Assembly (NCBI GenBank): GCA_026982355.1
Contig: JALSHG010000067.1
Span: forward strand, 1-59,765
Origin: Thermodesulfovibrio sp.
GTDB taxonomy: Bacteria; Nitrospirota; Thermodesulfovibrionia; UBA6902
Length of the DNA stretch: 59,765 nt
Direction: 5' to 3'
Shown: positions 39,815 through 56,860 of the stretch, piece by piece
Numbering within the stretch: the first letter of the stretch is position 1
Layout of the letters: every line of letters starts with the position of its first letter
Program-made: the position numbers and the translations under genes
Notes under the pieces: model-generated
Databases searched by the model: none
Told to the model about the DNA's origin: nothing
What the model saw: only the letters and a program-made list of their open reading frames with translations

Positions 39815-40239
39815 GAACACCTCCGGCCTGAATATTATGAACAAGATTCTACATTCTAACCTTGAAGTATACCCAAGGGAAGAAAGTTTCAGCAACCTCC
39901 AGCAATTCACGGTGAATGCAAAGAAATGAGCTGTAAGCACATCGAGTGCTTATCATTTCAGTAATATTCCCGGTTTCAGGAAATGCTCGTTTCTTATTCT
40001 TTAAGATGAAGACCATCTGAATGAAATGCCCCCCGTCTGCGTGTAATGCACAGGCAGACGTCAAGGGGGAGGCTGTTACCTGTAATCTTGACGTAGCCCT
40101 GCCGCCCCACGGAGGAAAAGGGCAAGCGCGGAGGGGTTGCTAATTTATCTAATAAAGCTATAAATCTGTTGAATTAGAGCATAACTTATTGCTATTATTT
40201 ATAAACCTTAAAATCAGGCCGGTTTGTTACCAGGGAAAA

Positions 40240-41199
40240 ATGGATATTCAGAGAAATATTTCACCTTTATTTTTATGTCTGGTGGCGTTCGCCGTCCTGT
40301 ATCCCTCTTTTTTAATACCACGGGATGCCCGTGCCCAGACCATATCCACGCCGGCGATCTTCGAAGGTGTTATTGATAAAGACGAAGAGGGAGGGGCCAT
40401 GTCCCTTCCCTCTTTCGTGCTGGCAGAGCCGGTGAGGAAAGAGATTTATGTCATAGACAGCAAGGCCAGAATCATCATATACACATCGGATTTCTTTCCC
40501 CTTTATACCCTCGGACAGGAGAGCGGCATTGAAAAACCGCAGGGCCTGGCAGTCGACGGCGACGGCACCCTGTACGTGGCCCAGCCCGCATCTGAAGGCA
40601 ATCCGCACAACAGGATTTCGGTCTTCAGCCCGTGCCTTAAATGGAAGCGTGATATTATTCTCAAGGGATTCGAGGGGGATGACACCTTCTACCCTTACCG
40701 TGTGGCAAGGGATAAAAACGGAAATATGTATGTCGCGGGCCTGTCTTTTCCGGGGGTGCTCGTGCTGGACGCCGATGAGCGTTTCACGGACATGATAATC
40801 CCGGAGGAAGACGGGAAAAAGGTGAAATTAAACGACGTGGTCCTCGATAAGAAAGGAAGGATATATCTCGTAAGCGAGGATACGGGGCATGTCTATGTTT
40901 ATGACGGCAACAGGAAATTCCTCTTTAAATTCGGTGAAAAGGGGGGGAGCTCCGGCAAGCTGAGCCGTCCGAGGGCCATAGGCATTGATGGGCGCAACGG
41001 CAGAATGTATGTGGTGGACTATATGCGCCATACGATCCTCGTGTATGACAGCGAAGGCAGGTATGTGTTTGAATTCGGCGGAATGGGCTGGGGGGAAGGA
41101 TGGTTCCAGTATCCCACGGACCTCGCGGTCGATTCGGAAGGCAGGATACTGATTGCGGATTTCTTTAATAACAGGATACAGGTGTTCTATCTCCGGTAG
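40240..41199 (+). CDS. Secreted NHL-repeat beta-propeller protein
   Basis: Signal peptide 'MDIQRNISPLFLCLVAFAVLYP...ARAQ'. Repeated 'G.(L/I/M)YV(A/V)D..N..I.V(F/Y)' units such as 'RMYVVDYMRHTILVYDSEGRYVFEFG' and 'ILIADFFNNRIQVF'. Confidence 0.8.
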   Translation: MDIQRNISPLFLCLVAFAVLYPSFLIPRDARAQTISTPAIFEGVIDKDEEGGAMSLPSFVLAEPVRKEIYVIDSKARIIIYTSDFFPLYTLGQESGIEKPQGLAVDGDGTLYVAQPASEGNPHNRISVFSPCLKWKRDIILKGFEGDDTFYPYRVARDKNGNMYVAGLSFPGVLVLDADERFTDMIIPEEDGKKVKLNDVVLDKKGRIYLVSEDTGHVYVYDGNRKFLFKFGEKGGSSGKLSRPRAIGIDGRNGRMYVVDYMRHTILVYDSEGRYVFEFGGMGWGEGWFQYPTDLAVDSEGRILIADFFNNRIQVFYLR

Positions 41200-41210
41200 T
41201 TGAATCCCGG

Positions 41211-41293
41211 GCATTGCATAAACGGGCAGGAGAGCCCGCCGGAAGACCGGCGGGCTCTCCTGCCCCTTGGCGATACTGTAATGCAACTGTAAG
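41211..41293. repeat. Palindromic intergenic repeat with a perfect 19-bp core hairpin, inside the cytochrome locus
   Basis: 'GCATTGCATAAAC-GGGCAGGAGAGCCCGCCGG-AAGA-CCGGCGGGCTCTCCTGCCC-CTTGGCGATACTGTAATGCAACTGTAAG'. The hairpin spans 41224-41265, between the NHL and YVTN genes. Confidence 0.8.
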
Positions 41294-42901
41294 ATGATCA
41301 TGAATAAAAGGAAGCAGAAAACTTTATCTTTTCTTTTTCGCCGCTCTCCCTATTCAGGTTTCTGTTTTATTCTGTTGTTAGCCTTTCTGGCGGGATGCAC
41401 TGCATTCGTGGAACGGGAGAGCCCCGCCGAACAGGCCTACAGGGGACAGATCGACATCTTTCTGAAAGGCCCCGACAAGCCCGCACTCGACATAACATTC
41501 GATCTCTCGGCGGTAAACATCGTCTCGGAGGACGGAACCCCGTACGAAGTCATGCATTCGCCGGTTAGCATTAACTCCATCGCGGCCGCCGGCCGGCAGA
41601 TTCTCCTGGCAGAGCAGACCCTGCCGGAGGGTGGATACAGGAGCCTCCGCCTGATTGTCAGTGGGGCATATCTCGTTAAAGACGGCAGACGCACAGACCT
41701 GTCACTGCCTCCGGAAGGGATAGAGGCGGACATAGACATAAGGATACGGAGAAACCGCAACACTTCCCTTTTCCTGGCCTGGAATGCTGACGCCTCTGTT
41801 GCCGGGGACCGCGTTTTCAGGCCGGTGTTTTCCGTTAAGGGCCGCGTGCCGGAGTTGAGTTCCCTGCTTATATATGTAACCAATGAGGGCTCTGATAATG
41901 TCTCGGTGATCAACAGGGAATCGGCGGAGGTGGTAGCCACCGTAATGGTGGGGAGGCGGCCCAGGGGTATCGCGGCGGGCCTTATAAAAGAGCGGATGAG
42001 GATCTATGTGGCCAACTCGGGCTCAAACAGCATTTCCGTGATTGATGCCGCCACAAACAAGGTGGAGGACGAGATACCGGTGAGGCTGGGCTGGGAGCCG
42101 GTTGACATAGCGGTCTCGAGGGTGGCTCCGGGGAAAGAGCTGCTGTTCGTGACCAATTACAGGTCCAACTCACTGTCCGTTATTGATTCCTCATCCGTTC
42201 ATGAGACGGACAACGTAAATACAGGAGACGGTCCCGTGGCCGTGGCCGTGGACCCGCCCGTGGAAAGCCTGTTCGGCGCCGGTTTCCTGAGTGCCGCGGA
42301 CATTGATCTTTTACGCTCCTACCGCAAGAGATTCCTCAATGTGTATGTGGCAAACGAAAAGTCCAATGACGTTTCAGTCTTCAGAATGGACGTCCAGAAT
42401 AACAGCATCGAAGAGCTTGCAAGGCTCCGGGTGGGATGGGGCCCTGATGCAATAGCAGTGGATTATCCAAGGGGCAGGGTCTATGTTGCAAATTATGATT
42501 CCGACAGCCTCTCCGTCATAGATATACTGCAGGTCATCAGGGACGGCGGTTCTGATGCAGTAAGTGTCATCAACAATGTCGGGACCTCGGTAACAGGGGT
42601 TATTGCAGACCCCGACTTTGAGAGGATATATCTTTTAAGGAAGGTGCCGGGTGAAATAACCATCATCCGGCCGTTCAAGAGAGGATTTAACACCCCCGAT
42701 GCAACGATGGTGCCGGTGACGGGTATCATCCCGGTGGGGGATTCCCCGGTATCTTTTGTCCTCGGTCCCGAGTCACGGAAGCTTTACGTGGTAAACAGGG
42801 GATCGAATAACATCTCGGTGGTCGACAAGACCGCCAGAAAGGAAGAACAGGTTATACCCGTGGGCAGGAAACCCTATGACATAGCGGTATTTCAGAGGTG
42901 A
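41294..42901 (+). CDS. Lipoprotein with an N-terminal DUF4382-like domain and a YVTN-family beta-propeller
   Basis: Lipobox 'LLAFLAGC' and 'LPEGGYRSLRLIV...LSLPPEGIE' (DUF4382-like). Six units of the kind 'YVTNEGSDNVSVI', 'YVANSGSNSISVID', 'FVTNYRSNSLSVID', 'YVANEKSNDVSVF', 'YVANYDSDSLSVID' and 'YVVNRGSNNISVVD'. Confidence 0.8.
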   Translation: MIMNKRKQKTLSFLFRRSPYSGFCFILLLAFLAGCTAFVERESPAEQAYRGQIDIFLKGPDKPALDITFDLSAVNIVSEDGTPYEVMHSPVSINSIAAAGRQILLAEQTLPEGGYRSLRLIVSGAYLVKDGRRTDLSLPPEGIEADIDIRIRRNRNTSLFLAWNADASVAGDRVFRPVFSVKGRVPELSSLLIYVTNEGSDNVSVINRESAEVVATVMVGRRPRGIAAGLIKERMRIYVANSGSNSISVIDAATNKVEDEIPVRLGWEPVDIAVSRVAPGKELLFVTNYRSNSLSVIDSSSVHETDNVNTGDGPVAVAVDPPVESLFGAGFLSAADIDLLRSYRKRFLNVYVANEKSNDVSVFRMDVQNNSIEELARLRVGWGPDAIAVDYPRGRVYVANYDSDSLSVIDILQVIRDGGSDAVSVINNVGTSVTGVIADPDFERIYLLRKVPGEITIIRPFKRGFNTPDATMVPVTGIIPVGDSPVSFVLGPESRKLYVVNRGSNNISVVDKTARKEEQVIPVGRKPYDIAVFQR

Positions 42902-42984: not shown

Positions 42985-45204
42985 ATGATGGCGAAAACTT
43001 CATGGAAGACTGTTCTTTTGCTCATGGTGATTCTGTTAACCAACCCGTTGGTCTTTGCCGGTGACACAGGGGGGTCGGCGGATTTAAACTATACCGCCAC
43101 AAGACAACTGGAGGAAGGCACGAAGACATCGGAAAAGGACAGCTTCAGCCAGGATTACAACCTGGGCATGGACAGCCGGATCAATCCGCTGATCTCGTAC
43201 AGGTTATCATTGCGGGCAAGATTCTCGGATAGCACCACCGAGTCCGACGGCAGCACCGCAAAGTCGTTCTACAGGATTGTGGACCCCGGGATGGATGTGT
43301 TTTTTGAGAATCCCCTGTTTGATTTCGAGGGGGGCTACCGCAGGCGGGAACAGTGGACGCATTCCGCGGGTGAGGGCAGAAGGACCACGGAAGACTACTA
43401 CTCACGCCTCGGGATAGTCACTTATTACTTTCCCACTTTGTCGCTTCAGTTCAACAGGCGGAAAAATGAAACAGACACGGGCTACACCACCGCCACAGGG
43501 TATTCGGTGAGTTCGGCATACATCCTGCCATCTGAAGATGTAAGGTTGTCGCTGCACGGTTCCTATACACGCAATATAAACGAGGCGCCGCATGCAAATA
43601 TCCATAAATCAATAAACGACACCTTCAGCAGCGGTTATAACATTGGTTATGCCGGTTCCCTGTGGAACGGCAGGGCGAGCTACTCCGTGAGTTACAAGGG
43701 CAGCTTTAACTGGAACAAAACCAGGCAGTACGTGACCGAGGAGGGCACTGTACTCACGAGGCGGACGGCCCTTGCGGGACTGTATGCACAGGGGAGCCCG
43801 GGAAATGAGGATGTGGGAGAGTTGTCGCTGAAGTCGTCACTGGTGAATGAAGAGCTGGTTTCGGCTACCAGCATCGACCTGAGCACCGCTGAGTTTCATA
43901 ATATCGGCATCCATGTCTCACCGGCAGGTCCAGTGGACAGGATATTCATCTACGTGAATGCCGATGTAAGCGCTGACAGCAATCTTAATACAACAACCAG
44001 TTGGAGGCTCCTCAGAAGCGACTTCAACCAGACGGGCACGTGGACTGAGAAACCCATTAAGTCCGTGACGGTGACTTCCTATGACACCCCGAATAACATA
44101 TACCGCTACGAGATAGAGTTTTCGGCCCCGCAGAGTGCGTCTTACTTCAAAGTCATCAACCTGAAGACCTCCGGCGTGTCGGGTGTATCCGTAACAGAGA
44201 TCGAGGCCTACGGCACGGACAGCACGGACAGCCTTACAACAGAGTCTGAATACTTCTCACAGGGTTTGAATTTCAGTGCAAGCGCACGACCCCTGGACAA
44301 ACTCCTTTTCTCCGTGACCTATTCCATAACGAGGACGGATCAGAACCCCGATTCAGCGCCCGCCTCTGTCGGCGGCATGTTTTCGAACATATTCGACAAG
44401 TCCGTCTCGGGGGAAAAGGAGGACTTCAGCTGCAATATACAGAGAAGCTACAGCGCCGGCGCAACCTGGATGGCCCACAGGCTGCTTACCACTTCACTGG
44501 GGGTTCAGCGCACCGAGACTTTTAACGATACCGGGACCACGGACATGGATTACAACACCTACTCGCTGTCTTTCAGTTCATCGCCGGCGCCCACAGTTGA
44601 TGCAAACCTCTCCCTGATCAGGAGCGACAGGTTTGACTCCGGAGAGAGGTCATCGACGGACAATACAGTCCTGTTAAGCGTCGGTTCCAGACTGTACAGG
44701 TACGTCACCATGATTACCGACGCAGGATATACCCTGACGGATTCTTTTGCAAGCGACACGCAGTCGTCCAGCCGGTTTATCAACGGCTCCCTTGACGTGG
44801 ACTTTACGCGCAGGATGACAGGCACCTTCAGGTACGGTTTTTTCTCATCAAGGGCCGACGGTTCATCCAGCGACTCCAAAAAGGGGGCGGCGGTCATTAC
44901 TTACCGGCCTGCCCGCCTGGTCAACCTCTCCGGGAGGTTCGAGGTATCGGACTCCGACGGGGATACGGTTACAACAGAGGGAGTGACAGTGAACCTGTAT
45001 CCCCTTCCGGTGATACAGGTGAACATGGATTACCGTCATGACAATTTTTCCGGCTCGGGAACGAGAGACAGGCTGGGCGGTTCTTTAACCTGGGTTGTAA
45101 CAAAATTCATCAGGGCCAGGATAAACTACAACTATGCGCGGGATATGCGCGAGGAAAAGGCCGAAAACCACACCATGAACGCAAATCTGAACATGAGATT
45201 CTGA
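42985..45204 (+). CDS. Large outer-membrane beta-barrel protein with a central discoidin (F5/8 type C)-like insert
   Basis: Signal peptide '...LTNPLVFA/GD'. Ser/Thr/Tyr/Gly/Asn-rich alternating strands and a C-terminal '...NANLNMRF' ending in Phe, which is an OMP signature. Residues ~290-412 end in 'YFKVINLKTSGVSGVSVTEIEAYG', resembling the end of a discoidin domain. Confidence 0.65.
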   Translation: MMAKTSWKTVLLLMVILLTNPLVFAGDTGGSADLNYTATRQLEEGTKTSEKDSFSQDYNLGMDSRINPLISYRLSLRARFSDSTTESDGSTAKSFYRIVDPGMDVFFENPLFDFEGGYRRREQWTHSAGEGRRTTEDYYSRLGIVTYYFPTLSLQFNRRKNETDTGYTTATGYSVSSAYILPSEDVRLSLHGSYTRNINEAPHANIHKSINDTFSSGYNIGYAGSLWNGRASYSVSYKGSFNWNKTRQYVTEEGTVLTRRTALAGLYAQGSPGNEDVGELSLKSSLVNEELVSATSIDLSTAEFHNIGIHVSPAGPVDRIFIYVNADVSADSNLNTTTSWRLLRSDFNQTGTWTEKPIKSVTVTSYDTPNNIYRYEIEFSAPQSASYFKVINLKTSGVSGVSVTEIEAYGTDSTDSLTTESEYFSQGLNFSASARPLDKLLFSVTYSITRTDQNPDSAPASVGGMFSNIFDKSVSGEKEDFSCNIQRSYSAGATWMAHRLLTTSLGVQRTETFNDTGTTDMDYNTYSLSFSSSPAPTVDANLSLIRSDRFDSGERSSTDNTVLLSVGSRLYRYVTMITDAGYTLTDSFASDTQSSSRFINGSLDVDFTRRMTGTFRYGFFSSRADGSSSDSKKGAAVITYRPARLVNLSGRFEVSDSDGDTVTTEGVTVNLYPLPVIQVNMDYRHDNFSGSGTRDRLGGSLTWVVTKFIRARINYNYARDMREEKAENHTMNANLNMRF

Positions 45205-45297: not shown

Positions 45298-45339
45298 GTG
45301 AAGGTTGAAAACCGCAGCGTGTTAACTTTGAATGTCGAT

Positions 45340-45927
45340 ATGTCGGGAAAAAATCGCAGGACATTCGTTTCCGTATTGGTGGCCGCCGTATCCATGCTTG
45401 TTTTCATCTATGGATGCAGCGCCGCGAAGAACTACACGAGTTACATCAGGCCGCAGTTTGATATTGCCGGTGTTAAGGAAATAGCAGTGTTGCCCTTTGA
45501 AAACTACACGTCCGGGTCTTATGCCGCTGAAAGAGTCAGAAGGGCCGTTATGATAGAACTCATGTCAAAGGGCATTGAAGTTACGGAGCCGGGCGAGATC
45601 ACGGCTGTTTTAAGAAAACAGAGGATAAGGTCCGTCCGAAATATAACGGTTGAAAACATACGGAACATCGGAGAGGCCCTTGGTGTGGATGCGGTCATGA
45701 AGGGGTCGGTAGGGGCATTCGGGATCAGCAAGGGCATATCCGTAACATATCCCGACGTCTCCGTTAATCTGACGCTTATCGAGCCGGAGTCCGGCAATAT
45801 TGTCTGGGCGGCCTCGAACACCTCGGGCGGCCCCGGTTTCTGGACCAGGCATTTCGGAGCAGAGGGCCCCACACTGGATGAGGCCGCTGCAAGGGTGGTA
45901 AGAGAGGCGCTGGATACATTGTTTTAA
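45340..45927 (+). CDS. Lipoprotein, TolB-N/LpoB/CsgG-like alpha/beta domain (paralogue 1)
   Basis: Lipobox 'LVFIYGC' and 'IAVLPFENYT' motif. Clearly paralogous to the next gene (PGEITAVL/PGEVTAAL; GSVGAFG/GSVQQYG; GNIVWAAS/GTILWSVT; 'RHFGA'). Confidence 0.6.
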   Translation: MSGKNRRTFVSVLVAAVSMLVFIYGCSAAKNYTSYIRPQFDIAGVKEIAVLPFENYTSGSYAAERVRRAVMIELMSKGIEVTEPGEITAVLRKQRIRSVRNITVENIRNIGEALGVDAVMKGSVGAFGISKGISVTYPDVSVNLTLIEPESGNIVWAASNTSGGPGFWTRHFGAEGPTLDEAAARVVREALDTLF

Positions 45928-46066
45928 CAGGCTGCGGGTGCGGTGTCCGGGCAGGCCGATAAAAAATTATAATAACCCGATAAATGCTGTCTGATAACCT
46001 CGTCTTTATGATAAAATAGAACGCTTGCTGAATTTGCAATCTTAAACAGACCGGAAAAAAAACAAA

Positions 46067-46651
46067 ATGCGTTTAATCAAGAGCCTCATACTTATACCGG
46101 CAGTTATTATTATGTTGCTTTCTGTGGCAGGGTGCCACAGGAACAGCGTGCCTGTTTACTATATGCGCGAGGATGTGGACTTCAGTTTCATCAAAAAGGT
46201 GGCGGTGATGCCCCTGCAGAACCTGACCGATGAAAGATATGCGGATGAGATTGTAAGGCAGACGGTCATCAGCGAGTTGCTCGCATCGGGTCTTGTTGAT
46301 GTAACGATTCCCGGAGAGGTGACGGCCGCCCTGGAGAAATTGAATATCAAGTCAGATGCAGCCCTGAATCCTGACCAGATAAAACAGATAGGGGAAATGC
46401 TTGATGTCCAGGCACTTGTTCTGGGGTCGGTCCAGCAGTACGGTGAGGTGAAATCCGGCAGTGTCGCCGCGCCGGAAGTGACGATTACCCTGATGATGGC
46501 GGATGTAAACACAGGCACCATCCTGTGGTCGGTTACGGAAACGCTTGGAGGAAGCAGTTTCATGTCAAGGCATTTCGGGGCGAAATCCAAGACCATGAGC
46601 GAAACCGTCCTGGCAGTGGTAAGAAAGGCGCTGCTGACGTTTACCGAATAA
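46067..46651 (+). CDS. Lipoprotein, TolB-N/LpoB/CsgG-like alpha/beta domain (paralogue 2)
   Basis: Lipobox 'LLSVAGC' and 'VAVMPLQNLT'. Collinear with paralogue 1 along its whole length. Confidence 0.65.
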   Translation: MRLIKSLILIPAVIIMLLSVAGCHRNSVPVYYMREDVDFSFIKKVAVMPLQNLTDERYADEIVRQTVISELLASGLVDVTIPGEVTAALEKLNIKSDAALNPDQIKQIGEMLDVQALVLGSVQQYGEVKSGSVAAPEVTITLMMADVNTGTILWSVTETLGGSSFMSRHFGAKSKTMSETVLAVVRKALLTFTE

Positions 46652-46707
46652 AAGAATCACTTCCACCAGATTATGTCTTTCCCTGCACGTGTTTGTTTAT
46701 TTTGCCG

Positions 46708-47775
46708 ATGAAGAAACAATGTCTTATCTGGTTTATATCGTTTTTCATCCTCTTGTCCTGTTCCGGCCATAAGGGAATCAAGCAGGATGCCGCGCCGGTG
46801 GAAGTCCAGCCGGAAAATGAAACGCCGTCAACGGCCGGTAAAAAAATCCTCGTGTTCCCCTTCGCCAATCTTACGGACAGCGCTGCCGCACTGAAAGATT
46901 CCATGCCCGTGCTGCTGGGCCGTCTCGAGAAAAAGGGATACAAAGTGCTGGGGGAGGATGCACTTTATGACTTCCTCTGCGGGAAGAGGATCAGGTATAC
47001 CGGCTATGTGCCGGCCGGCCTTGCCCGCGAGATAAAACACGGATTCGGCGCTTCATTCATCCTGACGGGGGCGGTTGTCTCGTTTTCCGCCGGCGAAAAC
47101 CCGCAGGTCGGCCTTGTCTCAAGGCTGATAGACCCATCCGACGGGGCCGTTATCTGGGCCGACTATGCCTCGGTCACAGGGGATGACTTTGCCGGGATAC
47201 TGGAAACAGGCAGGATAAGGACCGTGCAGGAGCTCATTCCCGAGGCCGTGGACAGGCTGCTTGCCTCTTTCAGCACATTGCGCTCGAGTAAAGACGCTGC
47301 CTTCAGGGTGGCGGTGCTGCCGTTTCTGAACCGCAGCAAGTTCAGAAACGCAGGAATCATCAGCATGTACCTGTTGATGGTGGACATGCTGAAGAACAGC
47401 AGTTTTGTGCCGGTGGAATACGGTGATGTCAGGGAGGTGATAGTGGCCCGGAGCATCACGAGCAGGGGAGAGCTGGGCTTTGAAGATATAAGGGCACTGT
47501 CCGGGGCCCTGAATGTGGAAGGTGTCCTGGTGGGCGCCGTGGAGCGTTACTCTGCATCCGTCCCCCCGGCCGTGGCCGTTACAGTCAGGCTGCTGGATGC
47601 CCGTGACAACAGGATATTGTGGTATAATAGTCACCAGTTGACCGGGGAGGATGACATAGTCGTGTTTGACTGGGGGAGGATCGGAACCGTTGATAAAGTG
47701 GCCTACAGGGCGGTGTCGGAACTGGTTGAGAGAATGCAGGAAGAAGTCAAACGGAACAATGGCGCTGAACAATGA
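46708..47775 (+). CDS. Lipoprotein with two tandem copies of the same domain (paralogue 3)
   Basis: Start at the ATG at 46708 gives 'MKKQCLIWFISFFILLSCSG' (lipobox). Domain A has 'ILVFPFANLT...GAVIWADY' and domain B has 'VAVLPFLNRS...NRILWYNS'. Confidence 0.6.
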   Translation: MKKQCLIWFISFFILLSCSGHKGIKQDAAPVEVQPENETPSTAGKKILVFPFANLTDSAAALKDSMPVLLGRLEKKGYKVLGEDALYDFLCGKRIRYTGYVPAGLAREIKHGFGASFILTGAVVSFSAGENPQVGLVSRLIDPSDGAVIWADYASVTGDDFAGILETGRIRTVQELIPEAVDRLLASFSTLRSSKDAAFRVAVLPFLNRSKFRNAGIISMYLLMVDMLKNSSFVPVEYGDVREVIVARSITSRGELGFEDIRALSGALNVEGVLVGAVERYSASVPPAVAVTVRLLDARDNRILWYNSHQLTGEDDIVVFDWGRIGTVDKVAYRAVSELVERMQEEVKRNNGAEQ

Positions 47776-47778
47776 TTG

Positions 47779-49437
47779 ATGACCATATTGAAAACACATA
47801 GCCCGCTGAAGCCGGCGAAGACGGACAGCGTGTTACGCCGCATACTGTGCACCGTTATATGCGCCCTGATCTTATCGGGCTGCGCATCCATATCGCAGAA
47901 AAGAGATATTCTCGCCGTGGTGGACGGGGAGCCGATAACCGAATCCGATCTGGAATATTCATTAGATGTGGCCCATCGCAGGGAGAATCTTTCATCCGCC
48001 GGAGACCTGAATATATCACAATATCTCCAGAAGCTGATAGATGAAAGGCTGATTATCCAGGAAGCAAGGCGCATGGGCATGGATGCGTATCCGGAGGTAC
48101 GGAAGAAAGTAGACGCGTATATCCTGCGGGAATCGGTGATGAGGCTGTACGAGGATGAGATCGCCTCGAAAGTCACGGTCAGTGAAGAAGATATAGAAAG
48201 CTTCTACAAAGAGAATTATGAACGTCTCTCCCTCGGTATAATCGAGGTCGACAGCGAAGAAGATGCGGGTAACATACTTGAACAACTGAAGAACGGCGAG
48301 GATTTCATGGAACTTGCCCGGAAATACTCCGCTTACTCCCACAAAAACAACAACGGCACGGTTACACTCAGGCGGAACGCCCTGAGCCCCGCCCTGGCGG
48401 CGGCTGTCTCGGGCCTGAAACCCGGAGAGACCACCGGTGTCACGAGGTCCGGCCGGAAATACTACATACTGAAACTCATGGACAGGCAGGAGGCTCCGGA
48501 TGACGAACTCCCCCGGCTCAGGAAGAACATAGAACGGGCCATACGGCGGCAGAGGGAAGCGGCCCGCGGCGATGCGTACCTGAAACATCTCCGTGACAAG
48601 GCGAACCTGAAGATCAACCGTGAAATCCTTGCATCCATTGATCCCTCCGTCAAAGGTGCAGAGCGTGAAAAGCTGCTGAAGGACAAAAGGCCGCTGGCCG
48701 AGCTGGATGGCTTTGTACTGACGGCGGGGGAGTTCCTGGCCATGATACCGCAGAAGTACACGCAGCCGGTGGAGAAAATTCTTGACAACTGGATCAACAA
48801 TAAACTGGTGGATATGGAAGCACTGAGCCGTCATTATGAAAAGATGCCCCCGCTGAAGGGAATGGTGGTGCGTTACAGGAACCAGGTGCTCATGAACACA
48901 TTTATCAGGGAAGTCCTCTCGCCCAACATAAAAATCTCCGACAAGGATCTGAAGGATTATTATCTGAGTCACAGGGAGGATTTTCTCAGGCCCGTCCGTT
49001 ACAACATACAGCAGATAACCCTGAAAACCAGGGAAGAGGCGGAAGATACATTAAGGAGCCTGCAAGACGGTGCGGACTTTTCCTGGCTGGCGAAAAACAG
49101 GTCAATAGATGAAGCAGCCTCCGGGGGCGGCAATATCGGCTGGGTGGCTGCACACCAGTTGCCCGGGCCTGCAAGGGAGATAGTGGAAAAGCTCAAACCG
49201 GGGGACATAAGCCCTGTCCTGGAGATCAAACCTTTTTACAGGATTATCAGGCTCCAGAAGAAAACCGGCAAAGAAGCCTACGAATTTGACAGGGTGAAGG
49301 AGGCTGTCCGCAGGAAGGTCTTTGCGGAAAAATACAGGGAACTTTATGCCGGATATGTTGACAAACTGAAAGAAGGCGCCCGGATAAAAATCTACAATGA
49401 TGCAGTCGAATCATTTGAGAAAATTTTCAGGAAGTGA
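47779..49437 (+). CDS. SurA-like lipoprotein peptidyl-prolyl isomerase (SurA_N plus two parvulin/PpiC domains)
   Basis: Lipobox 'ALILSGC'. Two parvulin-like segments ('EEDAGNILEQLKNGEDFMELARKYS...GRKYYILKL' and 'REEAEDTLRSLQDGADFSWLAKNRS...FYRIIRL'). Starts 4 nt after the previous stop. Confidence 0.8.
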   Translation: MTILKTHSPLKPAKTDSVLRRILCTVICALILSGCASISQKRDILAVVDGEPITESDLEYSLDVAHRRENLSSAGDLNISQYLQKLIDERLIIQEARRMGMDAYPEVRKKVDAYILRESVMRLYEDEIASKVTVSEEDIESFYKENYERLSLGIIEVDSEEDAGNILEQLKNGEDFMELARKYSAYSHKNNNGTVTLRRNALSPALAAAVSGLKPGETTGVTRSGRKYYILKLMDRQEAPDDELPRLRKNIERAIRRQREAARGDAYLKHLRDKANLKINREILASIDPSVKGAEREKLLKDKRPLAELDGFVLTAGEFLAMIPQKYTQPVEKILDNWINNKLVDMEALSRHYEKMPPLKGMVVRYRNQVLMNTFIREVLSPNIKISDKDLKDYYLSHREDFLRPVRYNIQQITLKTREEAEDTLRSLQDGADFSWLAKNRSIDEAASGGGNIGWVAAHQLPGPAREIVEKLKPGDISPVLEIKPFYRIIRLQKKTGKEAYEFDRVKEAVRRKVFAEKYRELYAGYVDKLKEGARIKIYNDAVESFEKIFRK

Positions 49438-49452
49438 CCGGCGGATAAAAAC

Positions 49453-51414
49453 ATGATCAGTTACAGGAAACATTTTCTGCGACTCTTTGTCTTGTTCTTT
49501 GTTTTCGCTGTTGTTGCTGCGTGTGTCCCGGAGAAAAAGGTAAGGAAGGCGAGAGGCTTTGCGCCCAAACCGTGCCTGGAATGTCACAAGGAGAATCTGA
49601 AGGACCTCACGAAGAAGTTCGTCCATGCGCCGATGGGCAAGCGGGACTGCGAGGCATGCCACCTCCGGCACGGGAGGCTTGCCGTCAAATCCTTTGTGAA
49701 AAGGAATGAGAAAGACCTCTGTTTCACCTGCCATCCGGATATGGCAAAGGATGTTGAAAACATGGCGAACATCCATACGGTTCTGAAGCAGGGCAGGTGC
49801 GTTGCGTGCCATAACCCCCATGCATCGGACAACAGGTTCCTGCAGGAAAAGGTGGGCGGCGAACAGTGCCTTGCGTGTCACGACCGGGGCGCCTTTGAGC
49901 GGGAAAAACGCCACAAGGCCCTTGACAAGGGTTGCCTTGTATGCCACGCGCCGCACGGCTCCCAGTACAAGTACAATCTCGTAAATGATGAAGCCGCGCT
50001 CTGCGCCTCATGCCATGATTACGCCGATGGCGCTTTCACCGCCGCTCACAGGGATTATCCGGTTGAAGAGGCCGGGTGCTCGGGCTGCCACGCGCCGCAC
50101 AGCTCCACAAACGACAAACTGCTCAGGGAATCCGTCCATGAGCCCGTGGGGCTCGCCAAGTGCAGTTCCTGCCACAAACCGGCTGCAGGCGCTGATCCGC
50201 TGGGCACAACGGCGCAGGGTGACGCGTTGTGTTACAAGTGCCATAAGAAAGAGCAGGAGGAATATATGACAGCCTACAGGCATCCACTGACCGATGAGGG
50301 CAAATGCCTGACCTGCCACAGCCCCCATGCCTCGGATTACCCGAAGGTTACACTCAGGGGCAAAGTGGAAATCTGTACAAACTGCCACTCTGAGAAGCCG
50401 AAGACGGACGTAACCCGCCTGCACGAGCCGATTAAAACACAGGGATGCACGGCCTGCCATAATCCGCACGCTTCGGAGAATCCGTTTTATCTGAAGGAAT
50501 CCGGGAAGAAAATATGTATTACATGCCATTCCGACACGGCGAAAGAGATGAAAGATGCATATACACATAAACCGTTTTCAAGTCTCCAATGCACGAAATG
50601 CCATGATTCGCACGGGACGGACAACCCTGAGATGCTTAAAACCCCTTTGAGGGAGATGTGTTATACCTGTCATGAAGACGCGGAGGCGGAATTTTTCAGG
50701 ACTTATATCCACACGCCCGTGGAAAAGAGGCAATGCGCATCCTGTCATACGTCCCATGCCTCGCCCTTCAGAGACCTTCTGAGAAATCCGCCGGAGCGGC
50801 TTTGCGTGACCTGCCATGACAGCATGTTTCTTGAAGTAGGGGAAGACGGCGTCCATCCCCTGTTCCGGCAGAAAAAATGTGAAACCTGTCATGACCCGCA
50901 TGCAAGCAATTACCCCGGCTCCACGGTCAAGCCCCTGAAAGAGCTGTGCTACGACTGCCACAAGACGCTGGAGGCCGAGGTGAAGCTCAGCGACAATGTA
51001 CACCTTCCGGTTGAAGAAGGGAAATGCACTGAATGCCACAACCCGCATGGAACAAAGCTCAGATACCAGTTGCTGAACCGCCCGAACGAACTCTGCCTCT
51101 CCTGTCACCGGAGGATTGTCACCACCACGGCGAGAAAAGGTCACCTGTCAATGAAAGAGGGCGACTGCCTGAGCTGCCATACATCGCACTCCTCCGGCCG
51201 GAGCAAACTGCTCAACAGGAGGGACCCGGAGATATGTGTCCGGTGCCATTTAATCGATACGGAAAGGCTTTTAAGCGGCCACAGACAGCCGGTGGCTGAA
51301 ATCCGCCGCTGCCTGAGCTGCCACGAGCCGCATGTAACGGAAAAACCCGGTATGCTCAAGAGCATAACTCATGAACCGTTCAGACAGGGGGATTGCGAGG
51401 CGTGCCATGATTAA
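49453..51414 (+). CDS. Multihaem c-type cytochrome, 26 CxxCH motifs (paired-CXXCH / c3-c7 polymer type)
   Basis: I counted 26 CxxCH motifs in 653 aa, arranged as about 13 repeats of the form 'C..CH.....H.P....G.C..CH.PH.S'. The N-terminal signal or anchor has a lipobox-like 'AVVAAC'. Confidence 0.9.
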   Translation: MISYRKHFLRLFVLFFVFAVVAACVPEKKVRKARGFAPKPCLECHKENLKDLTKKFVHAPMGKRDCEACHLRHGRLAVKSFVKRNEKDLCFTCHPDMAKDVENMANIHTVLKQGRCVACHNPHASDNRFLQEKVGGEQCLACHDRGAFEREKRHKALDKGCLVCHAPHGSQYKYNLVNDEAALCASCHDYADGAFTAAHRDYPVEEAGCSGCHAPHSSTNDKLLRESVHEPVGLAKCSSCHKPAAGADPLGTTAQGDALCYKCHKKEQEEYMTAYRHPLTDEGKCLTCHSPHASDYPKVTLRGKVEICTNCHSEKPKTDVTRLHEPIKTQGCTACHNPHASENPFYLKESGKKICITCHSDTAKEMKDAYTHKPFSSLQCTKCHDSHGTDNPEMLKTPLREMCYTCHEDAEAEFFRTYIHTPVEKRQCASCHTSHASPFRDLLRNPPERLCVTCHDSMFLEVGEDGVHPLFRQKKCETCHDPHASNYPGSTVKPLKELCYDCHKTLEAEVKLSDNVHLPVEEGKCTECHNPHGTKLRYQLLNRPNELCLSCHRRIVTTTARKGHLSMKEGDCLSCHTSHSSGRSKLLNRRDPEICVRCHLIDTERLLSGHRQPVAEIRRCLSCHEPHVTEKPGMLKSITHEPFRQGDCEACHD

Positions 51415-52714
51415 GTCAAAAGAGCGCAAGAGGGAAAACACTCACGGGAAGGCGGCGCTGTGGCGCATGCTCATCCTCCTTTCAGTGCTTGCGATCTCCT
51501 TCATCACCGGCGGCGGCAACGCTTTCGCAGGGGTCAAGCTCAAAGGCAAGGTGCCCGACCTCTGCTACAAGTGCCACAAGGAACTGAAAAAGGAACTCTC
51601 TGATAAATACGTTCACGCGCTTTTTAAAAAGGGCGAGTGCCTGAAATGCCACAATTCCCACGTGAGCAATGTCAAGGGCCTGATGAACGACGGGGTTGAC
51701 TCCATATGCATGAACTGCCACAGGGATATCAGGGACCTTCTCCGGAAGGGCGCGATGCACAGCGCGCTCAGGGAAAGCATATGTACCGACTGCCATTACG
51801 CTCACAGCGGGGAAAACAAGAGTCTCCTGGTCACGAAAGAAAAAAACCTCTGTCTGAACTGTCACGAGGATATCAGGGACCAGATGAAGAAATCCTATGC
51901 ATGCCGGCCGTTTAAGGAAGGCAAGTGCTCGGCGTGCCATGACTCCCACGGCTCTGTTGAAGACAACCTCTTGCGTTCATCCCCCAACAGCCTGTGCCGG
52001 ACATGCCACACCGCGCCGGCGTGCAGTGCGGGCGGGGTGTCCATTGCCTCTGAGATAAAAGACATGGATTGCACGACGTGCCATTCAGGCCACAGTTCAA
52101 AAGACAGGGGGATTCTCGGCCCGTACGGTCATACCGCCTTCCTGATCAAAAAATGCACGGAATGCCACAATCCGATCAAACCCGGCAGAAAGATCACCAC
52201 CAGGGCGGAGGGGGATGCCTTGTGTTACAAGTGTCATAAAAAGGATGACCCGAAGACCCTGTACATGGAAAACGACGTGCATGTGAAGAACGTAAAAAAC
52301 TCGTGCAACACCTGTCACGATTATCACGCCTCGGGCAAGAGGAATCTCACGAAAAACGAACAGAGGATATGCATCAGTTGCCATGAGAAAACCGAAAAAC
52401 GGACGGCCTCCATGGAAAAAGCCCTGAAAACCGTAAAGTGCGCCCCGGTCAAAAACAGGAGATGTTTTGAATGCCACATACCGGTGCACTCGGAGCGGAA
52501 GCTTTATTATATTTCGGATGAGATCACCATGTGCGCAAAGTGCCATGAGGCCCAGCACAAGATAACGCACCCGATAGGCGAGGATGTAAAGGACCCCCGC
52601 AACGGACAGCCGTTGACATGTCTTTCGTGCCACAGCATGCATTCAGCAAGGGAAAAATACATGCTCACTTTCGACAGGGCGCGGGCGCTGTGCATCCAGT
52701 GCCACAAGTTATGA
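51407..52714 (+). CDS. Multihaem c-type cytochrome, 16 CxxCH motifs
   Basis: 16 CxxCH motifs. Signal peptide 'LWRMLILLSVLAISFITGGGNAFA'. The ATG at 51407 overlaps the stop of the 26-haem gene (ATGATTAA) and GAGG lies 6 nt upstream. Confidence 0.9.
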   Translation: MIKSKERKRENTHGKAALWRMLILLSVLAISFITGGGNAFAGVKLKGKVPDLCYKCHKELKKELSDKYVHALFKKGECLKCHNSHVSNVKGLMNDGVDSICMNCHRDIRDLLRKGAMHSALRESICTDCHYAHSGENKSLLVTKEKNLCLNCHEDIRDQMKKSYACRPFKEGKCSACHDSHGSVEDNLLRSSPNSLCRTCHTAPACSAGGVSIASEIKDMDCTTCHSGHSSKDRGILGPYGHTAFLIKKCTECHNPIKPGRKITTRAEGDALCYKCHKKDDPKTLYMENDVHVKNVKNSCNTCHDYHASGKRNLTKNEQRICISCHEKTEKRTASMEKALKTVKCAPVKNRRCFECHIPVHSERKLYYISDEITMCAKCHEAQHKITHPIGEDVKDPRNGQPLTCLSCHSMHSAREKYMLTFDRARALCIQCHKL

Positions 52715-52859: not shown

Positions 52860-53885
52860 GTGAAACCGAAAAAATACCTTTCAGGCTTTTTTATTCTGTT
52901 ACTTCTGCTTACAGCAGCCGGCGCATCAACGGCGGCCGTTAAAAGCGGTTATCACTGCAGTGACTGCCACACCATGCACAACAGCCAGGACGGACGGCCT
53001 GTGGCCACAGAGCTGAACACATCCACGTACACGTTTGAGACCGATGCAACACCGAATCAGTTTTTACTCGTAAGCGACTGCACGGGCTGCCATACATCAT
53101 CCAGCGGCAGCAGTACCATAGTCAAGGACACGCCCATTGTATTCAATACGATTACACCGGTTGATCCACTGGCCGGCGGGAATTACTATTACGTGAGATC
53201 GGATGACTCCAGGGGGCACAATCCCGCAGGCATAACATCCCGGGATTCCGTCCTGGGGCTCACACCTCCGGGAGGTAATACCATGGCAGCGCAGTTGAGA
53301 TGCGCGGGACAATACGGCTGTCACGGCGACAGGAGCACAGGCAGTGATTACACTGCGTTAAAGGGCGCCCATCATGCGGATGACTCCGGGGGCGTGGACG
53401 GAAGCTCCGTGGGGCTGAGCTACCGTTTTCTGAACGGCGTGGTGGGAAAGGAAGACCCTGACTGGGAGCAGGACAATATAAACACGAGCCATAACGAGTA
53501 CAAGGGCTCCACAGGCCCGTCCGCCGACACCATCAGCTATCTCTGCTCGAGGTGCCACGGCGACTTTCACACATGGACCGGAGGCGTTTCCGCCGTCGGG
53601 ACCGCATCGCCGTGGCTGAGGCATCCGACTGACATTACGCTGAAGGCCTCGGGAGAATATGCAAACTATACGACATACAGCATGACAGCGCCCGTGGCCA
53701 GACCGGACCCGGGCAATGTGCCGGACACCACGAGGGTGAGGCCTGGCACTGATATAGTCATGTGCCTGTCCTGCCATCGCGCGCATGCTTCACCATATTA
53801 CAAAATCCTGAGGTGGGATTATAAGAGCCCTACACTTTCAACGGCTTTATCGGGGTGCAATGTATGCCATACATCGAAGAATTAA
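52860..53885 (+). CDS. Secreted hexahaem c-type cytochrome, OmcS-family-like (5 CxxCH plus 1 CX5CH)
   Basis: GTG start with GAGG 8 nt upstream, and a signal peptide. Motifs are 'CSDCHTMHNS', 'CTGCH', 'CAGQYGCH', 'CSRCH', 'CLSCHRAHAS' and 'CNVCHTSKN*'. Gly/Ser/Thr-rich. These motifs match my recollection of Geobacter OmcS. Confidence 0.8.
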   Translation: MKPKKYLSGFFILLLLLTAAGASTAAVKSGYHCSDCHTMHNSQDGRPVATELNTSTYTFETDATPNQFLLVSDCTGCHTSSSGSSTIVKDTPIVFNTITPVDPLAGGNYYYVRSDDSRGHNPAGITSRDSVLGLTPPGGNTMAAQLRCAGQYGCHGDRSTGSDYTALKGAHHADDSGGVDGSSVGLSYRFLNGVVGKEDPDWEQDNINTSHNEYKGSTGPSADTISYLCSRCHGDFHTWTGGVSAVGTASPWLRHPTDITLKASGEYANYTTYSMTAPVARPDPGNVPDTTRVRPGTDIVMCLSCHRAHASPYYKILRWDYKSPTLSTALSGCNVCHTSKN

Positions 53886-53948: not shown

Positions 53949-55646
53949 TTGAGAGACGGACGCATTAAACCACTGAAAACCATCTTGATAACCATGGCCG
54001 TGTGCTTACTGGTGGTTGCCGGCAATGCAGACGCAGGGACATATACCTCCACGAAGCACGGGACGGACGCCGACCGCTCGGTTGTGGTCCCGGGCTTCCC
54101 CTATACCACAAAGGGTCTCTGCGCCCAGTGCCACGAGCAGCACGCCGGTATTGACGGGAATGAGCCCACTCCGCCCGCTTCTGAAGGTCCGACATCCTAT
54201 GCACTGTTCAGGTCCAATTTCGGGCTTGACAAAAACGAGCTCTGCTATGCCTGCCACGAGACCTTCACCATAGGCTCAATGCCCCTGGGATACGGAAGAT
54301 ACGGTATTTACCAGGGAAAGACAAAGTACAACAACTCCATCCACTATTCAAGCGGCAACATGCTGTGGAGTCCCGATCCGGTGCCCCCGGGGCCGCCCCT
54401 TGATGATGCCGGGAATTGCCATAACTGCCACAATCCGCACGGTTATGATGACGGCGGGGGACTGATCCCGAACATGCTGTTTGCGCGCGATTCAAAGACA
54501 GGGGACAGCCCTGCCTATGAGATGGGCTGCGAGGCCTGTCATGACGGCACACAGGGCGGAGCATTCAAGAACGTAAAGGCGCAGTTGAACAAGACCTACA
54601 GCCATCCCACGCACAGATTCAATAACCGGCATGTGCTGCCCGAGACCGGCAGGTCCGAGGGCGGCAGCAGTTTCGGCCCGGCCAACAGGCATGCCGAATG
54701 CGTCGACTGCCACAATCCCCATGCCCTCGGCTCCACAGGCTCGACCCATACCCCTCCGGGGAATGCGGTCTCGGGAGCTCTGAAGAACGTGTGGGGTGTG
54801 GCACCGTCATGGCCGTCCATCTGGACACAGCCGAAGATATTCACCGTAAGGAGGCCCCCGGCCTATCCTGACGGGAGCAGCAAGGAATACCAGATATGCT
54901 TCAAATGCCATTCATACTACGGCCTCGGCAGCCTGACAAACGCTGTCTCATCAATCATCGGGCCGTCCGGCGTAAATATCACCGATCAGGCCTGGGAGTT
55001 CAACAGGAACAATAAATCGGCCCATTCCGTGGTGGTGACATTAAACAACCAGACAGGTTCATACTCTCCGAAGGCCCTTGCGTCGTCACAGATGTCCCCG
55101 CCGTGGACAAATGTGGGGAATCAGACCATGTACTGTTCGGATTGCCACGGAGCGGACAACGAGGGCTCCGGCGCAAAAGGGCCCCACGGCTCCAATGTAA
55201 AGTTCATGTTAAAGGGAGCCTACAAATACTGGCCTGCAAGAAATGACGGGCAGCTCTGGAGATTAAGCGACAAGAACAACTTCACCTCATACGGCGGCCT
55301 GTTCTGCAAGAACTGCCATCCTGTTTATGACGGCACGTGGAAAAACAATGTTCATTCACAAACCGGCGGGGGCGGCCGCGGCGGCAGCGGAGGCCATCAG
55401 GACCAGCCCTGCGTTGCGTGCCATGTAGCCGTGCCGCACGGTTCAAAGAGGTCGCGGCTTATCGGGTACAGTTCCGACCCGGCGCCTTACAACTACAACG
55501 GCAACACTCTCAAGGTGACCGGCTTCAGAAAGGCCGGCGGCCCCTTCAGTTATTCCGGGATGCCGAAAAACAGCACCGGCAACAACTGCGCCACTGCAGG
55601 CGTGTCAGGATGTCATGGGAGCTCCATATCGGGCGCCGATCCATGA
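53949..55646 (+). CDS. Secreted multihaem c-type cytochrome (9 CxxCH plus a C-terminal CX7CH-like motif)
   Basis: TTG start with GGAGAGGG upstream. Signal peptide '...LLVVAGNADA/G'. CAQCH, CYACH, CHNCH, CEACH, CVDCH, CFKCH, CSDCH, CKNCH and CVACH, plus 'CATAGVSGCH' nine residues from the C-terminus. Confidence 0.8.
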   Translation: MRDGRIKPLKTILITMAVCLLVVAGNADAGTYTSTKHGTDADRSVVVPGFPYTTKGLCAQCHEQHAGIDGNEPTPPASEGPTSYALFRSNFGLDKNELCYACHETFTIGSMPLGYGRYGIYQGKTKYNNSIHYSSGNMLWSPDPVPPGPPLDDAGNCHNCHNPHGYDDGGGLIPNMLFARDSKTGDSPAYEMGCEACHDGTQGGAFKNVKAQLNKTYSHPTHRFNNRHVLPETGRSEGGSSFGPANRHAECVDCHNPHALGSTGSTHTPPGNAVSGALKNVWGVAPSWPSIWTQPKIFTVRRPPAYPDGSSKEYQICFKCHSYYGLGSLTNAVSSIIGPSGVNITDQAWEFNRNNKSAHSVVVTLNNQTGSYSPKALASSQMSPPWTNVGNQTMYCSDCHGADNEGSGAKGPHGSNVKFMLKGAYKYWPARNDGQLWRLSDKNNFTSYGGLFCKNCHPVYDGTWKNNVHSQTGGGGRGGSGGHQDQPCVACHVAVPHGSKRSRLIGYSSDPAPYNYNGNTLKVTGFRKAGGPFSYSGMPKNSTGNNCATAGVSGCHGSSISGADP

Positions 55647-55936: not shown

Positions 55937-56860
55937 TTATTGCTGCTGCTGGAACTTGTCTTTATGACAGGCAATGCATATCTGCACATTTTCCTTTGCC
56001 AGGCGAAGCCGGTATTTTTCACTCGCTCCTTTTGCCCCCGGTTTGTTTGGCGGGATCACGCCCCTTTCATGCGGGTTATGGCAGGTGGGGCATGTGATTT
56101 TCCCTTCATAATCAAGTGGCAGTATGATACCGTACTTCTTTTCAGACTCCTTCATCATTGCCAGTATCTTGTCGGGTGGTTTAAGGAGGTGGTTGGCATT
56201 GATGGGATGCCGGCGGCTCTGCTTGAAATGGCACCTGTAACAGAGAACTTCGAGATTGCCGATGAGCTTGACCTCTTTAAATGTCGCGCGTTTTTCATCG
56301 GGCTTTTCCACGTGACAGTACAGGCACTTCTGTATGATGATCTCCCCTTTCCGCGTCAACTGGTTATGCGGGTCCAGCATCCTGTACTTTTTCTCGTCAT
56401 GACACCTGAAGCACAATGTCGTGCGGCTAAGGTAGGGAGCGCCTCTGAGAAATCTCTTGTTAAGCGACTTTGCCTGGGGATTAACCCCGCACTGCAGGTA
56501 TATGTTATGACATGTGATGCACGAAACCCTGCCATTGAGCAAGGGTAAATCTTTCGGTATCTTTTTCTTCTTCTCCTTCGATGGCGCCACGCCCACCGGA
56601 TGTATGTATGCGCCGGGCGTGTAACCGTGGCACCAGCATAACTTCGAGAAGTCACCGTTATATTTCAGGAATTTCTTTCCGCCCTTCACCGGTTTTTTCT
56701 CATGGCACTCACTGCAGTACTTGCCCGTGTAATGAATATCCGTATCCTTTGTGACACTCGTTGTTGCCTTCCCGGCAGCGGAGGCCCATCCGCCTGACTG
56801 TGCGAACAGCATAATACCCGCAACAAGCGCGAAAAACACTATAAGGGGGGGTTTTTTCAT
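55937..56860 (-). CDS. Periplasmic/secreted heptahaem c-type cytochrome
   Basis: Signal peptide 'MKKPPLIVFFALVAGIMLFAQS'. Seven CxxCH (CSECH, CITCH, CFRCH, CLYCH, CYRCH, CPTCH, CIACH). Lys-rich. This is the only cytochrome gene of the locus on the minus strand. Confidence 0.85.
   Translation of the reverse strand: MKKPPLIVFFALVAGIMLFAQSGGWASAAGKATTSVTKDTDIHYTGKYCSECHEKKPVKGGKKFLKYNGDFSKLCWCHGYTPGAYIHPVGVAPSKEKKKKIPKDLPLLNGRVSCITCHNIYLQCGVNPQAKSLNKRFLRGAPYLSRTTLCFRCHDEKKYRMLDPHNQLTRKGEIIIQKCLYCHVEKPDEKRATFKEVKLIGNLEVLCYRCHFKQSRRHPINANHLLKPPDKILAMMKESEKKYGIILPLDYEGKITCPTCHNPHERGVIPPNKPGAKGASEKYRLRLAKENVQICIACHKDKFQQQQ

Follow-up and report, generated by a model that had tools for sequence, protein, structure and literature searches.

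An OmcS-like cytochrome with a CX5CH third haem site and its gene cluster in a Thermodesulfovibrio genome

Filaments of the OmcS type are the best-understood biological "wires", yet structural knowledge of them comes entirely from Geobacter. A gene in the genome of a Thermodesulfovibrio sp. (Nitrospirota; assembly GCA_026982355.1, contig JALSHG010000067.1) raises the question of how far this knowledge extends to a distant relative of OmcS whose third haem site has five residues between its cysteines (CX5CH). The gene lies at 52860..53885 on the + strand of the window, by which we mean the whole stretch of 59,765 nucleotides that was analyzed. It encodes an OmcS-like c-type cytochrome of 341 amino acids (aa) with a GTG start, the stop codon being included in these coordinates. 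We ask here whether the protein is homologous to OmcS (GSU2504 of G. sulfurreducens; structures 6EF8 and 6NEF), whether the CX5CH site is peculiar to it, whether that site holds a haem and whether the protein polymerises. Very probably it is an OmcS-family six-haem extracellular electron-transfer cytochrome. The overall explanation that we regard as likely is that it is a secreted hexahaem subunit of the OmcS family, from a published "OmcS-like" sister clade, serving filament-type electron transfer.

Homology and collinearity with OmcS

Translation of 52860-53885 placed the open reading frame (ORF) and all its motifs exactly where an earlier sequence-only reading of this DNA had put them. A GAGGA Shine-Dalgarno sequence lies 8-12 nucleotides (nt) 5' of the GTG codon, and the spacer before the gene is 145 nt long. 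Residues 1-25 (52860..52934, + strand, as for all features of this gene) are assigned to a Sec-type signal peptide by alignment with homologues and by rule alone. Cleavage is predicted after STA at residue 25, and the homologues carry AXA-type sites 4-7 residues ahead of the first Cys. The signal peptide of the 341-aa protein contains no lipobox Cys. Seven residues precede the first Cys of the mature chain, compared with eight in OmcS. The mature protein has about 316 aa, 32% of them Gly, Ser or Thr, which bears out its description as rich in these residues; it is about 91 residues shorter than mature OmcS (407 aa), in agreement with the 90 or so that had been estimated.

The six Cys...Cys-His sites match OmcS haems 1-6 one for one, collinearly and in the same order, with the last near the C-terminus; only the spacing of site 3 is non-canonical. 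The haem 1 motif CSDCH (C33) is followed by T-M-H40 (52956..52979), H40 being the equivalent of OmcS His16. The haem 2 motif CTGCH (C74-H78, 53079..53093) was located by translation and homologue alignment. Site 3 reads CAGQYGCH (C148-H155, 53301..53324; DNA TGCGCGGGACAATACGGCTGTCAC). The haem 4 motif CSRCH (C229) with H237 in CHGDFH (53544..53570) aligns with OmcS CANCHTDIH, the haem 5 motif CLSCHRAH (C302-H309, 53763..53786) is identical to OmcS CLSCHRAH (His332/His335), and the haem 6 motif CNVCH (C333-H337, 53856..53870) is placed like OmcS CNKCHAKD. Between these motifs lie G-H120-N (53214..53222), whose conserved His corresponds to His110 of OmcS GHN and is a candidate distal ligand, H171-H172 in "AHH" (53370..53375), H211 in "SHNEY" (53490..53492) and H255 in WLRHPTD (53613..53633), the equivalent of His257 in OmcS LRHP.

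The strings CSDCHTMHNS, RGHNPAG, WLRHPTD, CLSCHRAHAS and the terminal CNVCHTSKN, on which the sequence-only reading had based its comparison with OmcS, are all in the translation. The OmcS strings that it set beside them are all in the authentic protein as well (FHSGGVAECEGCHTMHNS, GHN, LRHP, CLSCHRAHAS, CSSCH and CNKCHAKD; 6EF8 alignment and supplement of PMC12545173). The motifs common to the two proteins are CxxCHTMHNS, GHN, PGG...QLxC, YRxL, LRHP and an identical CLSCHRAHAS. The differences are the 26% identity, the shorter chain, C-x5-CH at site 3 where OmcS has CSSCH-DPH, as the reading had stated and alignment confirmed, and three His residues invariant in the relatives of the protein (His171, His172 and His211) that are without counterpart in OmcS.

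Two results weigh against a specific relationship. A single-sequence phmmer search of the PDB returned no match for the OmcS-like protein, which marks the relationship to OmcS as a distant one. Pfam and NCBIfam gave generic matches to doubled CXXCH motifs only (Pfam Paired_CXXCH_1 and Cytochrome_C7). The empty phmmer search and these generic domains would both be expected if the resemblance were no more than the general similarity of low-complexity multihaem cytochromes with CXXCH motifs. More sensitive comparisons argue strongly to the contrary. A profile of 26 homologues matched OmcS in the PDB (6EF8, E=1.5e-10), with profile positions 33-325 collinear with OmcS 7-349, and its one other match, 3ubr, was insignificant (E=4). 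BLASTP against a Geobacter OmcS representative gave 26% identity at E=1e-9. When 149 diverse homologues were aligned to 30 OmcS-clade proteins with hhalign, the match reached 99.9% (E=2.5e-34) over 314 collinear columns and took in the non-haem motifs GGNF/GGDF, GHN, PGG, YRxL, LRHP and RW/RF.

Structure prediction agrees with the alignments. AlphaFold2 (AF2) gave a predicted local distance difference test score (pLDDT) of 38 with the 26 close homologues, and of 94.4 with the 149-sequence alignment (predicted template modelling score, pTM, 0.91). Foldseek of the latter model against 350,542 PDB chains returned 6ef8_A as the sole match at E<=0.001 (E=1.1e-7, prob 1.00, TM-scores TMq 0.55 and TMt 0.44), which places the predicted model in the same fold class as OmcS, with no close superposition. 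The PDB contains no solved structure from the group of CX5CH proteins to which the OmcS-like protein belongs. Accessory neighbour genes common to both loci point the same way. Generic multihaem similarity is ruled out by the hhalign E value of 2.5e-34 together with the OmcS-only Foldseek match, and we regard it as extremely improbable. The claim that the shared motifs are collinear with OmcS thus stands on profile search, BLASTP, hhalign and AF2/Foldseek alike: the OmcS-like protein is homologous to OmcS, collinear with it and of the same fold, though distant.

The CX5CH spacing as a clade character

The sequence-only reading had singled out CX5CH as an unusual spacing for c-type haem attachment. 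The site is real and non-canonical, but it is no peculiarity of one gene. We scored site-3 spacing by profile-anchored alignment, with MAFFT and a neighbour-joining (NJ) tree, in place of a crude regular-expression survey. CX5CH was found in 120/120 of the closest homologues, in 64 of 72 proteins taken from genome loci and in 311 of 372 profile-aligned segments. Forty-one of the 61 segments without it cover no site-3 motif and are mostly fragments or second domains, although two of these 41 really hold longer spacers (CX10 and CX12) beyond the reach of the scoring; the others have CX2 (14 segments, OmcS included), CX4, CX6 or CX7. The signature of the site is C-[AGS]-G-x-x-G-C-H-G. Far more consistently than chance would allow, C148, G150, G153, C154, H155 and G156 do not vary among 26 homologues, and C148, C154 and H155 remain invariant in 149 diverse ones. 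Of 120 OmcS-clade proteins, on the other hand, 119 have CxxCHDPHG and not one has CX5CH.

The family is large. At least 3,000 matches were found in a 90%-clustered database, a 50%-clustered library yielded 1,364 clusters at E<=1e-3, of which 508 reach E<=1e-30, and relatives of the OmcS-like protein are encoded in at least 546 species-representative genomes. The NJ tree, which is rough (BLOSUM62, midpoint rooting, no support values), separates OmcS proper, a "middle" clade with seven haem motifs and the CX5CH clade. The last takes in the OmcS-like protein, a homologue from a Desulfofervidaceae metagenome-assembled genome (MAG; L025), which has CAGTYGCH and is 44% identical to it, and DA_402 of Desulfurivibrio alkaliphilus. 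The OmcS-like protein thus falls outside the OmcS clade, and with 341 aa and 26% identity it differs from OmcS proper, which has precursors of about 430-450 aa and at least 55% identity. It carries all the marks of the CX5CH clade, namely CAGQYGCHG, AHH, SHNEY, SYRFL and WLRHPTD.

DA_402 (WP_013162640.1) has been described as an extracellular "OmcS-like" cytochrome that is induced more than 100-fold on ferrihydrite (PMC12545173, Nature 2025). In the same work its "CX2-5CH" motifs were aligned to OmcS, its TM-score to OmcS was 0.56, its AF2 oligomer was filament-like and its clade was named "a sister clade of OmcS" (PMC12545173). The supplementary alignment sets DA_402 LTCAGAKGCHGTR opposite OmcS LHCS---SCHDPHGKY (PMC12545173). 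The OmcS-like protein is nearer to DA_402 (36% identity, E=1.4e-52) than to OmcS (26%, E=2e-9), and shares with it CAGxxGCHG (LTCAGAKGCHG in DA_402), AHH, SYRFL, SHNEY, LRHP, APVARP, MCLSCH and GCxxCHT. It differs in that DA_402 has insertions, a seventh motif (CNRCH), a mature length of 408 aa and a Desulfobulbia host, and in that DA_402 comes with expression and physiology data. Two further D. alkaliphilus proteins, DA_756 and DA_765 (~347-359 aa), are listed as "OmcS-like 5x" in one supplementary sheet and with six haems in another (PMC12545173). Their architecture is that of the OmcS-like protein, and DA_756 adjoins a 16-haem MtrA-like gene. The OmcS-like protein is therefore a further member of a large and already published "OmcS-like" sister clade of OmcS, and because CX5CH is the norm of that clade and already stands in a published alignment, the novelty of the gene is lower than at first reading.

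Some relatives have additional domains. In three loci the ORFs (~520-720 aa) and in five others (~680-720 aa) join a CX5CH OmcS-like domain to 3-8 extra C-terminal CxxCH motifs, and one group of fused ORFs is without the haem-1 motif. Four CX5CH genes are on contigs binned as archaeal, namely Ca. Methanoperedens, Methanosarcinales (L028, one of the longer fusions), Heimdallarchaeota and Promethearchaeota. These could reflect horizontal transfer into methane-oxidising archaea, or mis-binned contigs of bacterial partners.

Haem occupancy and register of site 3

In the AF2 model site 3 is a two-stranded beta-hairpin with strands 147-149 and 153-156 (DSSP E122-124 and E128-131 in mature numbering), and the block has a pLDDT of 98. 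The Gly-flanked five-residue spacer would form this hairpin and so set C148 opposite C154, and each of the six sites would carry a bis-His haem. Judged from conservation and alignment, a haem is bound at the CX5CH site with good probability. What tells against it is that the literature we searched contains no paper using the term CX5CH and no documented haem attachment at such a site; the motif has thus been shown in print but never singled out.

A pentahaem protein, with its five CXXCH motifs loaded and the CX5CH segment haem-free as a structural hairpin, a disulfide or a metal site, would accord with that silence. It would also accord with the "5x" listing of DA_756 and DA_765 and with the predicted hairpin, since the usual form of a haem-binding segment is a helical turn. 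The conservation of the site is hard to reconcile with such a protein: C148, C154 and H155 are invariant, more than 300 sequences keep the same spacing between them, OmcS haem 3 is the collinear counterpart of the site, and the sister clade with seven motifs has a canonical CxGCH on the same second Cys and His. Geometry also speaks against it. In OmcS the haems are strung in a single line that follows the motifs; without haem 3 the wire would be interrupted between haems 2 and 4, and it is for this reason that we infer haem 3 to be present. As the site is invariant and the chain has to be continuous, an empty CX5CH site is clearly unlikely.

Spacers other than two residues are in any case compatible with haem binding in other proteins. 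Expanded haem c motifs are known as CX15CH in MccA, which needs a dedicated haem lyase, and as CX4CH in cytochrome c3. A nanowire subunit itself provides a further case, for haem 1 of OmcZ has an expanded motif with a 14-residue loop (PMC9473688) and, like CX5CH, a non-CXXCH spacer. What sets the CX5CH motif apart from those of OmcZ, MccA and cytochrome c3 is its spacer of five residues, with fixed glycines (G-x-x-G) and a predicted hairpin. Published modelling of DA_402, finally, superposes its site-3 pocket on OmcS haem 3 (PMC12545173).

The register of the site is a separate matter. With hmmsearch, hhalign and MAFFT, site 3 aligns ungapped, and C140-S-S-C143-H144-D-P-H147-G (OmcS 140-148) stands opposite C148-A-G-Q-Y-G-C154-H155-G (53301-53327). 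It follows from this alignment that H155 corresponds to OmcS His147, the invariant His of DPHG, and C154 to OmcS Pro146. The seven-motif clade has A/G-G-C-x-G-C-H here, with the same second Cys and His and a first Cys three residues after C148. In the published T-Coffee alignment, by contrast, site 3 contains a gap of three residues (PMC12545173). His171, His172 and His211 do not vary in the CX5CH clade (44/44) or in the seven-motif clade (19/19), while the OmcS clade lacks the AHH pair and has Tyr or another residue at these positions, Tyr being the one opposite H211. The CX5CH clade thus has eight conserved non-motif His residues for six haems, and two of these His residues are unaccounted for.

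One reading of these alignments, tentative and on the whole doubtful, is that CX5CH is a haem site shifted in register by three residues, in which the proximal His of haem 3 would occupy the position of OmcS His147 and His171, His172 and His211 would rewire the axial ligation of haems 1-3. If true, this would be a new hairpin-type motif for haem c attachment, one that might depend on a dedicated haem lyase and set haem 3 at a potential of its own, within a nanowire family far more widespread than OmcS proper. Among the ORFs scanned in the window there is no cytochrome c maturation or haem lyase gene.

Proposed filament formation and the gene cluster

Each of the 12 axial ligands of OmcS is a His, haem 5 takes one of its ligands from the neighbouring subunit, and the haems stack in motif order (PMC6584659). 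The subunit interface measures ~1900 A^2 (PMC9473688). In the 6EF8 alignment OmcS H332 is the His of CLSCH. The ligand supplied in trans to haem 5 we take to be His16, which Wang et al. in 2019 are reported to have described as the inter-subunit ligand; the assignment also draws on the published haem-5 ligand from the neighbour and on the identity of H332.

The equivalent of His16 is kept, as the sequence-only reading had claimed. H40 stands opposite OmcS His16 in the alignment, at a position where every sequence of the three clades has His (44/44, 19/19 and 13/13; 76 in all). CxxCH-[TS]-[MIV]-H is retained in both the CX5CH clade and the OmcS clade, and at the positions of H40 and of the haem-5 CLSCHRAH no sequence of the three clades departs from His or Cys. 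H40 is one of five non-motif His residues, with H120, H237, H255 and H309, that are common to OmcS and conserved across the clades. In the mechanism that we propose, the OmcS-like protein would be exported and would polymerise head-to-tail into a conductive filament, in which H40 of one subunit would ligate haem 5 of the next. The filament would exchange electrons with the porin-cytochrome conduit (barrel, 26-haem and 16-haem proteins) encoded upstream, for their transfer outside the cell to minerals or to partner cells.

Several observations weigh against polymerisation. The protein is some 90 residues shorter than OmcS and the TMq is just 0.55, so the subunit interface may not be conserved. 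As eight conserved non-motif His serve six haems, H40 is not forced to act in trans and a ligand set entirely in cis is possible. PSORTb classes the paralogues DA_756 and DA_765, of the same architecture, as "periplasmic" (PMC12545173), and AF2 folds a lone monomer with confidence. All of these would suit a monomeric, soluble hexahaem shuttle, periplasmic or at the surface, between the 16-/26-haem conduit and its acceptors, with H40 ligating a haem of its own chain or none. Such a shuttle leaves aside, however, that the N-terminal CxxCH-T-M-H-N-S and the haem-5 CLSCHRAH, the partners of the inter-subunit bond in OmcS, are the most conserved segments across the three clades, that the published AF2 oligomer of DA_402 is filament-like and that the accessory cluster is shared with the Geobacter omcS locus. 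On this sequence-based evidence we consider filament formation marginally probable, and the monomeric shuttle rather unlikely.

The OmcS-like gene is the eighth item of a co-directional cluster that, as listed, consists of an NHL propeller, a YNCE/DUF4382 propeller, a 739-aa protein, three lipoproteins, a SurA/PpiC protein, a 26-haem and a 16-haem cytochrome, the OmcS-like protein and a 9-haem cytochrome, with a convergent gene for a 7-haem cytochrome. A putative barrel, a 26-haem protein with a lipobox and a 16-haem DmsE/MtrA-like protein are thus adjacent, as in clusters of the oet/omcS type. The two beta-propeller genes (40189..42901, +) encode an NHL repeat protein of 336 aa and a YNCE/lactonase/DUF4382 protein of 535 aa. 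Next comes the gene for the secreted 739-aa protein (42985..45204, +), which has no Pfam or NCBIfam match and represents an uncurated family; we presume that it forms the barrel of the conduit in the outer membrane and resembles OetI. The three lipoprotein-like genes (45298..47775, +) encode a GNA1162/LpoB-like protein of 209 aa, an LpoB-like protein of 194 aa and a FlgO-like protein. The third ORF, of 416 aa as listed, probably has its true start internally, the homologue in the closest relative having 343 aa. In many loci such LpoB/GNA1162/FlgO-like genes accompany the cluster, and the Geobacter omcS locus has them too.

These genes are followed by those for a SurA/PpiC-type peptidyl-prolyl isomerase with a lipobox (553 aa; 47776..49437, +), the 26-haem cytochrome (653 aa; 49453..51414, +), which has a lipobox-like N-terminus (VVAAC), and the 16-haem cytochrome of DmsE/MtrA type (447 aa; 51371..52714, +), which is probably periplasmic. 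As listed the 26-haem and 16-haem ORFs overlap by 44 nt. The latter probably starts at a later Met, since about 30 residues precede the hydrophobic signal segment in the listed N-terminus. Directly downstream of the OmcS-like gene lies that of the 9-haem cytochrome (565 aa; 53949..55646, +). This protein contains a Gly run (GGGGRGGSGG) and is 88% identical in the closest relative, and its gene is near the OmcS-like gene in 8/81 loci only. It may be an OmcX-type partner; it has no specific similarity to the third OmcS paralogue of the Geobacter locus. The gene for the 7-haem cytochrome (307 aa; 55937..56860, -) is convergent with the cluster.

The order of the cluster is kept in the closest relative (L001), with 73-88% protein identity by tblastn, and in eight further loci from MAGs of Nitrospirota/Thermodesulfovibrionia. 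The 26- and 16-haem genes are within 10 kb of the OmcS-like gene in 52 of 81 loci. At the Geobacter locus, omcS is followed by omcT and a third paralogue, and after these come a YNCE propeller, a 718-aa protein and an LpoB-like lipoprotein. The two loci thus have in common a YNCE propeller, a barrel of ~720 aa and LpoB-like lipoproteins, but the OmcS-like gene lies downstream of its conduit genes whereas Geobacter omcS lies upstream. The 739-aa protein matches the 718-aa protein with 22% identity over ~685 aa (E=5e-15), and the 535-aa propeller matches its Geobacter counterpart at E=6e-19. This homology of barrel and propeller indicates that accessory machinery travels with OmcS-family genes in both lineages.

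"OmcS-like" extracellular cytochromes have also been reported in the oetABI cassette of syntrophic sulfate-reducing bacteria that are partners of anaerobic methanotrophic archaea (ANME), namely HotSeep-1 and Seep-SRB1a/1g/2 (PMC10553843, PLoS Biol 2023). We count these cytochromes in the same sister clade as the OmcS-like protein. As in that cassette, where the OmcS homologue is proposed to form filaments, the gene here has a porin-cytochrome conduit and other extracellular cytochromes with many haems as its neighbours. The cassette occurs mainly in Desulfuromonadales, Geobacterales, Desulfobulbia and Thermodesulfobacteria (PMC10553843), whereas the closest syntenic loci here are in MAGs of Nitrospirota/Thermodesulfovibrionia.

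The rest of the window is ordinary chromosome, with RecG, NusA, DinG/YoaA, Snf2, MqnC, Obg, a ProB-like kinase, a PhoR-type kinase, HflX, PolA, Nramp and one tRNA. The Snf2-family helicase (843 aa; 15493-18024, - strand), which adjoins the DinG/YoaA-like helicase (13521-15503, - strand), is unrelated to the cytochrome. Its best NCBIfam match is a pilus-expression-regulating Snf2 helicase, well under the curated cutoff.

The value of the locus is mostly annotational, in that a Thermodesulfovibrionia genome holds a complete cluster for extracellular electron transfer of the OmcS type. The questions of haem occupancy at CX5CH, of the ligand set and of filament formation belong to the whole clade, which is found in Thermodesulfobacteriota, in Nitrospirota and in the bacteria that accompany methane-oxidising archaea, and whose expression in D. 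alkaliphilus rises strongly when the organism respires iron oxide. The structure of any member would show whether haem 3 sits on a CX5CH hairpin, whether the axial ligands have been rewired and whether the "latch" between His16 and haem 5 is a general device for polymerisation.

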